Below, piece after piece: positions 26,253 through 27,584 of a DNA stretch of 32,000 bases. Numbering within the stretch: the first letter of the stretch is position 1; every line of letters begins with the position of its first letter. The position numbers and the translations under genes are program-made. The stretch is from contig CAZECW010000157.1 in assembly GCA_964510585.1 (NCBI GenBank), positions 1 to 32,000 of the forward strand, in the 5' to 3' direction. A model generated the notes under the pieces. It had not been told where the DNA came from. It ran no database searches and saw only the letters and a list, made by a program, of their open reading frames with translations. The stretch comes from an uncultured archaeon (GTDB lineage: Archaea > Asgardarchaeota > Jordiarchaeia > Jordiarchaeales > Jordiarchaeaceae).

Positions 26253-26549
26253 TCACCGAATACCAGCAGTTAAAATCAAAGCCAAAGCTGTCAAAGTACC
26301 AATCTTCCTCTCTTTCATCTCGTTTCTAACATAAAAAAATTTTCCAGACTTAACAATTGAAATTACATGCCGTTTCTTCTTATACGCCTCAAGATAATCT
26401 TCACGCACGATAATTTCATCAAACTCCACCCTACCCAACTCCCTCAAAACATCATCCTTAGAAGACTTAATAAAATCAGCCCGCCGCTCAACAGGAAAAG
26501 GGGTATCACTCAAACTATCCAACAAATCTGCAGTCAAAAACACAACCAA
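26253..26549 (-). CDS. Hypothetical ~98-aa protein (track ORF 26253-26681 is over-extended into the tRNA gene)
   Basis: TTG at 26549 follows GGAGGG at 26561-26556, with an AT-rich TATA-like stretch further upstream. Confidence 0.58.
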   Translation of the reverse strand: MVVFLTADLLDSLSDTPFPVERRADFIKSSKDDVLRELGRVEFDEIIVREDYLEAYKKKRHVISIVKSGKFFYVRNEMKERKIGTLTALALILTAGIR

Positions 26550-26632
26550 AACAAACCCTCCAAACAATAAACACTTAATAAAAACAATTAAGACATAAAG
26601 TATTATAGTTATCCCCAAAAAGCGAGTTGAGT

Positions 26633-26638
26633 AAAAAA
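26633..26638 (-). terminator. Oligo-T (T6) terminator of the tRNA gene
   Basis: TTTTTT on the minus strand, 10 nt after discriminator C73. Confidence 0.6.
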
Positions 26639-26648
26639 GGTGATTGAG

Positions 26649-26846
26649 GGCCCAAGCCGGGATATTCATGAGACCAGCCAAAGGCTAATCCTCAAATTGA
26701 AATCCCGAACCTAGCCAAACTGGCTAAGGAACCCGGGTCAAGGGATGTCTATCACCCTGGAGACACATCCAACTTCGGTCCACAGTCCCCGAGGATAAAC
26801 CAGTGAGCCCAGCGTGTAGCCACGCTGCGACTACCCCACTTGGGCC
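26649..26846 (-). tRNA. tRNA-His: tRNA-His(GUG) with four introns. Exons 26846-26831, 26802-26780, 26746-26732, 26701-26696, 26662-26649.
   Basis: Spliced 74-mer: G GCCCAAG UG GGGU AGUGGUUUA UCCU C GGGGA CUGUGGA UCCCU UGAC CCGGG UUCAAUU CCCGG CUUGGGC C. Perfect 7-bp acceptor plus G-1:C73, perfect T stem, GUG anticodon. CCA is not encoded. Each junction sits in a BHB-type motif. Confidence 0.92.
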
Positions 26847-26880
26847 TCTTCTTACGCTGAGCTTGATATCACGCATGGGA

Positions 26881-26895
26881 ATATAAAATTTTTTC
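26881..26895 (-). promoter_or_regulatory. BRE/TATA promoter of the tRNA gene
   Basis: GAAAAAATTTTATAT on the minus strand. It predicts a start near 26858 and a ~12-nt leader before G-1. Confidence 0.65.
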
Positions 26896-27005
26896 GGATT
26901 TTATCGTTTCTATTTTAAAATTGTGAGAAGAAATTTGATTTATTTTTTAATTAGTTAGAAGGTAAGGGAGCTAAGTTTGTGATTTTGTTGTCGTACTTTT
27001 TGGGT

Positions 27006-27584
27006 TTAGGGTTTGTGCCAGGTGAACATGTAGTATTTTGGTTCCCCTGTAGGGGATACTGTTGCTACCACGAATTTTTTGCGGACGCTGGTTGCGAGAC
27101 GCCCCGCCCTTACTGTTTCTATGGGGCTGAGTTGTGTTCCTTTGGGGACGACTGATACTATGAGTGGGGCGTGGTCTATGCCGGGTCCGTGTTCGTAGAC
27201 GGAGAAGTCTGCTCCGAATTTGAGTCCGGGTCTGACTACGTATCCTTTTTCTCTGAGGTCTTTGTAGACTGCATATTTGGTTTTGAAGTCTATGTAGGTT
27301 TGTTCTGCTTTTTCCAATAGTTCTTCGGGAGTTATGGTGTGGTTGTCTTGGGCATCGGTGAGTGTAATTTTTTCTTTTTGGAGTAAGTATAGGGCTTCTA
27401 GTAAGGAGAGTTCGAGGGGGCGTGTGAATTGGGGTGATTTTGGTTTTCTTATTCCTAGGGGTTGTCCGTAGAAGCCTTCGGCGTAGAGTTGGGAGCCTTC
27501 CTCAGGATTCCATACTATTACTCTATTTCCAGAAATTAGTTCCGCTTTTTTTTTGGTTGGTGCTGTTTTTTCGGTTGCCTCCAC
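27006..27584 (-). CDS. endA: tRNA-intron splicing endonuclease, catalytic alpha subunit with crenarchaea-specific-loop-like insertion
   Basis: LSLLEALYL, VYKDLREKGY, GLKFGADFSVY, catalytic Y130/H138/K169. Loop GFYGQPLGIRKPKSPQFTRPL. Confidence 0.95.
   Translation of the reverse strand: MEATEKTAPTKKKAELISGNRVIVWNPEEGSQLYAEGFYGQPLGIRKPKSPQFTRPLELSLLEALYLLQKEKITLTDAQDNHTITPEELLEKAEQTYIDFKTKYAVYKDLREKGYVVRPGLKFGADFSVYEHGPGIDHAPLIVSVVPKGTQLSPIETVRAGRLATSVRKKFVVATVSPTGEPKYYMFTWHKP

Follow-up and report, generated by a model that had tools for sequence, protein, structure and literature searches.

Overlapping splice motifs around a six-nucleotide exon in the four-intron tRNA-His gene of an Asgard archaeon

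How would a tRNA precursor be spliced when two of its introns lie only six nucleotides apart? The question is raised by a locus on the minus strand of the window (the whole 32,000-nucleotide stretch of archaeal DNA analyzed here), where a tRNA-His(GUG) gene is broken by four introns of the bulge-helix-bulge (BHB) kind and the exon between introns 3 and 4 is no longer than UUCAAU. An earlier note on this DNA had proposed that the splice motifs of these two introns exclude each other, that intron 4 needs an outer helix that is contiguous only once intron 3 is gone, and that the RNA itself would thus encode an order, with intron 3 removed and its exons ligated before intron 4 becomes a clean substrate.

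A tRNA-His gene in five pieces

Given the unspliced DNA, neither ARAGORN nor Rfam finds a tRNA anywhere in the window. The division into exons and introns (Table 1) was read by hand and with a scan for BHB motifs, and the joined exons were then given to ARAGORN. Together, the five exons make a 74-nt sequence that ARAGORN calls as tRNA-His(gtg), and with it the micro-exon that the earlier note had placed at 26701-26696 is borne out. The spliced product has G-1 opposite C73, U8, A14, G18G19, A21, and a T loop, UUCAAUU, of the UUCRAUU type, and its anticodon arm, GGGGA-CUGUGGA-UCCCU, sets GUG after U33 in a 7-nt loop on a 5-bp stem. The G-1 at 26846 precedes G1 and the C at 26649 follows the acceptor 3' strand, and the two pair in all six species in which the gene was found. 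The D stem is short, with three pairs only (G10-U25, G11-C24, and G12-C23) and a U13/U22 mismatch; a register with ATCC as its 3' strand was rejected because it leaves an extra base before position 27. The first intron has a central helix of GGGU with GCUC and bulges of AG/U and AC/U, and its intron hairpin is shifted by one bulged base. The interval from 26649 to 26846 is about 52% GC, versus 42% for the genome.

By sequence alone, the borders of introns 3 and 4 can slide, as each end of intron 3 has a TTC and each end of intron 4 a T, so that the size of the six-nucleotide exon rests on BHB geometry. Two other pairs of cuts for intron 3, at 26729/26704 and at 26728/26705, were tried and rejected, as they produce wrong T loops.

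The flanks of the gene have features of their own. The 3' trailer CUCAAUCACC (26639-26648), which is followed by a run of T, shows near-identity among four species, and all six retain its start; this is more conservation than expected for a trailer. Judged from its letters, the six-T run itself is likely a transcription stop. A listed open reading frame of 142 amino acids (26253-26681, minus strand), which begins with TTG, extends over the 3' end of the tRNA gene, and Pfam gives no match for it; its real start, if it is a gene at all, is probably further downstream.

Table 1. Features of the tRNA-His(GUG) locus, in window coordinates
Feature	Position	Strand	Basis or remark
endA, catalytic alpha subunit of the splicing endonuclease	27006..27584	-	Pfam PF01974, PF02778; about 160 nt upstream of the tRNA, same strand
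tRNA-His(GUG) gene, G-1 (26846) to discriminator C73 (26649), CCA not encoded	26649..26846	-	ARAGORN on spliced product; only His candidate; kept in six species
Exon 1: G-1, acceptor 5' strand, U8, D-stem 5' strand, A14, G15	26831..26846	-	
Intron 1, 28 nt, position 15/16, relaxed BHB	26803..26830	-	position confirmed by spliced product
Exon 2: D loop, D-stem 3' strand, anticodon-stem 5' strand, anticodon loop to G37	26780..26802	-	
Intron 2, 33 nt, canonical position 37/38; central helix CUGU with AUAG; outer helix is the 5-bp anticodon stem	26747..26779	-	
Exon 3: A38, anticodon-stem 3' strand, variable loop UUGAC, T-stem 5' strand CCGGG	26732..26746	-	
Intron 3, 30 nt, position 53/54	26702..26731	-	
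Exon 4, 6-nt micro-exon UUCAAU (DNA TTCAAT), T-loop positions 54-59	26696..26701	-	identical in five species, UUCAAC in the sixth
Intron 4, 33 nt, position 59/60	26663..26695	-	
Exon 5: U60, T-stem 3' strand CCCGG (26661-26657), acceptor 3' strand, C73	26649..26662	-	
Run of six T after the conserved trailer CUCAAUCACC	26633..26638	-	read directly, conserved in alignment; likely transcription stop

The host genome (3.78 Mb in 217 contigs, 96% complete) belongs to an organism whose DNA occurs in hot-spring metagenome runs. A scan for GUG anticodon arms with tRNA context found no second tRNA-His candidate in this 96%-complete genome, so the gene should be functional and all four introns must go. 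We read the locus as the only tRNA-His(GUG) gene of this hot-spring Asgard archaeon (Jordarchaeia/Freyarchaeia group), and as a functional one. Across the whole genome, only seven tRNAs are matched by Rfam and 10 by ARAGORN, which fits the heavy interruption of tRNA genes published for this lineage (PMC11291895; 10.64898/2026.10.13.758758).

When 40 relatives were searched with BLAST, the five other species of the genus all proved to have the gene (76-95% identity), and in the alignment all four intron positions and the micro-exon are common to the six species. Invariant columns make up 81% of the exons versus 46% of the introns, and the acceptor stem of one species (G002) has compensatory changes. 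Within the introns, little or no variation is seen in the bases that are critical to the motifs (CGGG for intron 3; for intron 4, UUGAGG and UCUCAUGAA), whereas the hairpin interiors and bulge bases vary. Covariation among the six sequences supports the helices neither way: the critical helices never vary, and shuffled alignments score as high as the real one in 119-357 of 500 trials. Strain or species variants of the locus, seen on contigs from further hot-spring metagenomes, have their substitutions (26712, 26818, 26906, and others) mostly in introns, in agreement with the six-genome alignment. None of the runs listed for this DNA is on record as RNA. Two runs labelled as metatranscriptomic (probably DNA) and two DNA runs gave only unspliced contigs over 26560-26960, with no joints, and are uninformative on expression and order.

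Beyond the genus, a covariance model of the two-intron T arm, run against 151 Asgard genomes, had full-length matches only in this genus; the shorter matches outside it are other tRNAs whose T arm is cut by one intron at most. Among these is the tRNA-His(GUG) of another Asgard family (L027, G111:C21, about 51700-51841). Its only intron is at 59/60, with positions 15/16, 37/38, and 53/54 uninterrupted, and over the variable loop and T stem its exon sequence matches the gene described here exactly. The 59/60 intron may be older than the 53/54 intron, or it may have been gained twice. In the sister family, represented by five genomes, a tRNA-His pattern search found nothing, and the covariance model matched only other tRNAs.

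Two motifs that share the micro-exon

The outer helix that had been drawn for intron 3, U43-A46 with U55-A58, is present as UUGA (26741-26738; positions 43-46) paired with UCAA (26700-26697; positions 55-58). The central helix is formed by CCCG (26737-26734) with CGGG (26707-26704), and the bulges are GG/U and AU/U. There is no contiguous helix on the intron side; an 8-bp hairpin lies behind a 2x2 internal loop. All six species have four of four central pairs, 2-4 bp in the exon-side helix (h1), and 0-1 bp in the intron-side helix (h2), and none of these values is changed by removal of intron 4. In two sister species, the outer helix is down to 3 and 2 bp; G002 naturally carries U44A, a change that breaks the pairing of UUGA with UCAA. 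The UUGA of the variable region also occurs in a tRNA-His without intron 3 (in G111) and so is ancestral tRNA-His sequence.

The central helix of intron 4 is formed by UUCA of the micro-exon (26701-26698; positions 54-57) with UGAA (26668-26665), as the earlier note had it, and is flanked by bulges AU/U and UA/U. On the intron side, UGAG (26694-26691) pairs with CUCA (26672-26669), and this helix continues into a hairpin. The outer helix is the T stem itself (positions 49-53 with 61-65), in which CCGGG (26736-26732) pairs with CCCGG (26661-26657), and it is interrupted by intron 3. In all six species, intron 4 has four of four central pairs and an h2 of 5-7 bp, and its h1 goes from 0 bp in the precursor to 5 bp once intron 3 is removed, so the claim that the T stem becomes contiguous only after that removal stands.

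The core of the strict motif, a 4-bp central helix with two 3-nt bulges on opposite strands, is thus present in introns 3 and 4 of all six species, but both outer helices, as in the strict hBHBh' form, are not found together for either intron in the precursor. Before splicing, intron 3 has only an exon-side helix, which makes it hBH-like, and intron 4 has only an intron-side helix, the HBh' form, so that each is a one-helix motif.

Residues U55-A57 and C49-G51 are claimed by both motifs, which therefore cannot form at once, and here the mutual exclusion of the two folds that had been proposed is upheld. This does not make the arrangement a special device. A BHB motif needs about five exon bases after one intron and six before the next. 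Any exon shorter than about 11 nt between two BHB introns will consequently produce overlapping motifs as a matter of geometric necessity, and the overlap seen here is not beyond chance.

Other T-arm introns of the same genome show how such motifs are built when they occur singly. In a targeted scan, a single 59/60 intron was found in at least 16 tRNA genes, all with a 5-bp T stem as the outer helix, and a single 53/54 intron in at least six, of which four of six lack any exon-side helix and rely on the intron helix. From these four, the exon-side helix appears to be dispensable for the enzyme of this organism. Genome-wide, the combination of a 53/54 and a 59/60 intron gave 17 raw matches, of which only the His gene is tRNA-like, in a scan that required a TTCRA T loop and perfect central helices and can miss others.

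What the overlap would cost in energy was estimated by folding. Unconstrained minimum free energy folds of the precursor and intermediates are uninformative, as the mature sequence itself gives no cloverleaf in this way, and constrained ensembles were used for that reason. Constrained ensemble free energies were calculated with the acceptor stem enforced, at 37, 60, and 75 °C, for the six species; being nearest-neighbour energies, they leave out protein, tertiary contacts, and base modifications. At 60 °C, formation of the intron 3 motif (outer helix, central helix, and bulges) costs 2.2-3.8 kcal/mol in the precursor and 2.0-5.0 kcal/mol after removal of intron 4; there is thus no gain, and the motif becomes harder to form in four of the six species. 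The strict intron 4 motif, with the T stem, costs 2.4-7.9 kcal/mol in the precursor at the same temperature (at least 5.2 in five of six species) and about 1.1-3.1 kcal/mol after removal of intron 3, a fall of about 3-5 kcal/mol in five of the six. The exception is G003, in which the strict motif already costs only 2.4 kcal/mol in the precursor and there is almost no energetic gate. In the relaxed HBh' form, without the T stem, the intron 4 motif costs 1.8-2.8 kcal/mol in the precursor and 0.7-2.1 kcal/mol after intron 3 is removed, again at 60 °C. Over the calculations taken together, the precursor cost of this relaxed form spans 1.8-4.0 kcal/mol, and that of the strict form goes from 5-8 to 1-3.5 kcal/mol in five of six species. 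In the genome of the window (G000), the intron 3 fold is favored over the relaxed intron 4 fold by 0.4-1.8 kcal/mol at 60-75 °C, and at 37 °C the relation is reversed.

By these calculated energies, removal of intron 3 would clearly make a better substrate of intron 4, and removal of intron 4 would do nothing for intron 3. Equally, the relaxed intron 4 motif is predicted to be as accessible in the unspliced RNA as the intron 3 motif, and it is a plausible substrate. The constrained folding that had been suggested as a check on the ordering thus supports one part of the idea, in that the cost of the strict intron 4 motif drops in five of six species, but not the other, as the relaxed form is already cheap in the precursor. 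To say that intron 4 "needs" its outer helix is too strong.

The endonuclease and the order of the cuts

How far a relaxed motif would serve depends on the enzyme, and a candidate is encoded next to the tRNA gene (Table 1). The best solved relative of the window's EndA is that of Aeropyrum pernix (3p1z_B, E = 2.8e-45, full-length alignment). In the crenarchaeal L1 loop, YGQPLGIRKPKSPQF lines up with YGQPLDVEKPRGADF of the A. pernix chain (3p1z_B), the loop lysine included, and the IDHAP motif (in which the His is replaced by Ala in the 3AJV variant chain) and the VRKKF motif are aligned as well. The genome has two PF01974 matches, C157 (the window) and C126, and therefore two paralogous subunits. 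An (alpha-beta)2 EndA that has the L1 loop is the type described for Asgard archaea, and in vitro the A. pernix enzyme accepts strict motifs as well as the relaxed HBh' and hBH forms (PMC5829648). The EndA of the window, by its sequence, is of this broad-specificity Aeropyrum type, which it resembles in the loop lysine and in the presence of a second paralogue (3P1Z, 3AJV; PMC5829648, PMC3241643); it differs in that substrate range was measured for A. pernix and is predicted for the Asgard enzyme. By analogy with the A. pernix biochemistry, and given the 53/54 introns that lack an exon helix, cleavage of relaxed motifs by the Asgard EndA would be expected. As a separate observation, among genomes of the genus whose contigs reach that far, endA lies 140-290 nt upstream of the four-intron tRNA-His gene on the same strand, and the pairing recurs in four other genomes (L003, L004, L005, and L006).

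Which intron leaves first cannot be read from the sequence. What follows more directly is that introns 3 and 4 must be cut in separate steps, because the productive folds exclude each other and the sites are 6 nt apart. We propose that the (alpha-beta)2 endonuclease, together with a ligase, would remove the four BHB introns from the tRNA-His transcript, and that in the T arm the pre-tRNA would switch between two folds. In fold A, intron 3 would be presented by UUGA with UCAA and CCCG with CGGG, and the T stem would be unformed; in fold B, intron 4 would be presented by UUCA with UGAA and the intron helix. The two introns would then leave in separate rounds of cutting and joining. We lean toward intron 3 leaving first, and take this to be the most likely main route, as a kinetic bias and not as an obligatory order, because this type of enzyme also cuts relaxed motifs. 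Its motif would be equally available with or without intron 4 and would be wholly transcribed ahead of the partner strand of intron 4, and its removal would let the T stem form, turning intron 4 from a relaxed HBh' into a strict hBHBh' substrate. Of the ordering in the earlier note, the separate steps and the completion of the strict motif are retained; the order itself would be a kinetic preference at most.

Several alternatives have to be weighed against this route. A decayed pseudogene or a structured RNA of another kind, with the micro-exon an artefact of a forced tRNA model, might be suggested by the failure of standard tools to find a tRNA here. Either seems very improbable, however, because splicing yields a complete tRNA-His, with G-1:C73, U8, A14, G18G19, and a standard T arm, because the 96%-complete genome has no other tRNA-His candidate, and because six species preserve the architecture, with acceptor-stem changes that are compensatory and with exons that vary less than introns. 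It is also rather doubtful that there is no preferred order or that intron 4 goes first, as would be the case if the folds exchanged fast at growth temperature and EndA took either, with intron 4 the better relaxed substrate. Folds A and B differ by only 0.3-1.8 kcal/mol with a sign that changes with temperature, the relaxed intron 4 form is cheaper than the intron 3 motif at 37 °C, and the contiguous intron helix of intron 4 (5-7 bp) has no counterpart in intron 3, which offers only an exon helix of 2-4 bp; further, the tRNA-His with only a 59/60 intron in another Asgard family hints, without showing, that intron 4 predates intron 3. Against this, the intron 3 motif would become no easier to form after intron 4 had left, and harder in four of six species, it would be fully transcribed before the partner strand of intron 4, and fold A is favored at 60-75 °C in G000.

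A strictly obligatory order, in which intron 4 is no substrate until intron 3 is cut and its exons are joined, and in which only the intermediate lacking intron 3 and retaining intron 4 would occur, is unlikely. In its favor, intron 4 possesses the strict hBHBh' motif only once intron 3 is out (in six species, h1 is 0 bp before and 5 bp after), and in five of the six the calculated cost of that motif is then lower by about 3-5 kcal/mol. Every single 59/60 intron found in the genome has the 5-bp T stem as its outer helix, and there is precedent in nested introns, the last BHB of which cannot assemble until the other introns have been excised (Sugahara 2007; Tocchini-Valentini 2009; both through PMC3978253). 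On the other side are the predicted accessibility of the relaxed HBh' form of intron 4, which equals that of the intron 3 motif in the precursor, the broad-specificity type of EndA (PMC5829648), the other introns of this genome that would be spliced without an exon-side helix, and G003, where the energetic gate is almost absent. A bolder form of the idea, that the T arm is a true two-state RNA switch enforcing intron 3 and then intron 4, a built-in checkpoint conserved with endA across the genus, we likewise consider improbable. If it were true, the elbow of the tRNA could not form until both cuts had been made. Asgard archaea would then have their first demonstrated case of obligatory recursive tRNA splicing, and no shorter exon would be on record for such splicing.

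Relation to known interrupted tRNA genes

Splicing of pre-tRNAs in successive steps is known from other archaea. In Thermoproteales, nested and multi-intron pre-tRNAs are spliced stepwise, according to work cited in PMC3978253 (Sugahara et al. 2007; Tocchini-Valentini et al. 2009, PNAS 106:20246). As described there, those genes are like the one here in having several BHB introns, with one motif full only after another intron is removed, and in rounds of splicing that are driven by refolding. They differ in that here the neighbours are 6 nt apart and not nested, the host is an Asgard archaeon, the introns number four, and the relaxed motif of the later intron is already present in the precursor, for which reason the order would not be forced. 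In the red alga Cyanidioschyzon merolae, several BHB motifs in pre-tRNAs are processed in a reproducible order that follows calculated stability, even without a structural block (Soma et al. 2013, as treated in PMC3978253). That system is eukaryotic, with a different endonuclease and with motifs that, in the same account, fold independently, whereas the motifs here overlap.

The same phenomenon is on record for other tRNA genes of the same lineage. In Freyarchaeia, Jordarchaeia, and Atabeyarchaeia, 92-95% of tRNA genes are given as containing introns (Valentin-Alvarado et al. 2024, PMC11291895), and the supplementary table of that paper has four-intron genes for Arg-TCT and Ile2-CAT. When the rows of these two genes are read as all intron begins followed by all intron ends, the internal exons come to 7-9 nt. 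Splicing Ile2-CAT and Arg-TCT from G005 at the published coordinates gives valid tRNAs, which confirms this reading of the table. It also shows that the coordinates of G005 match those of the complete Freyarchaeia genome that was published. At 6 nt, the micro-exon here is slightly shorter than the 7-nt exon in that table. A more recent preprint gives up to five introns per tRNA gene, with many T-arm introns at canonical BHB motifs (Goswami et al. 2026, 10.64898/2026.10.13.758758). In the searched text of these two sources (PMC11291895 and 10.64898/2026.10.13.758758), neither the order of splicing nor an overlap of motifs is worded.

The literature already has examples of multi-intron pre-tRNAs that are spliced in order and of Asgard tRNAs that are heavily split, and the concept is not new. 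The locus is real and conserved, and it takes a known kind of gene interruption to an extreme; the ordering is reasonable but is not compelled by the sequence. With the general idea established in Thermoproteales, the mechanistic gain is incremental. What the gene does illustrate is that an essential, single-copy tRNA can be split over five segments, the smallest of just six bases, and be missed by standard gene finders, and with this the reach of protein-dependent tRNA splicing in the closest prokaryotic relatives of eukaryotes. It also offers a compact, conserved test substrate for two questions, whether the exon-side helix is required by an Asgard EndA and whether the splicing order is governed by refolding.

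There is a gain for annotation as well, in that a missing histidine tRNA is filled in. The published tRNA table of the complete Freyarchaeia genome (PMC11291895) has no tRNA-His. The four-intron orthologue (L005) lies at G005:C1:1921594-1921790, and the four-intron gene appears to be the tRNA-His that is missing from that table.

Finally, introns 3 and 4 resemble each other in part. In G000 and its closest relatives they contain a common hairpin core (26711-26727 in intron 3 and 26674-26689 in intron 4), consisting of UUAGCC, a loop of 3-4 nt, and GGCU. This likeness, which fades in G005 and G002, hints that one of the two introns may have arisen from the other.
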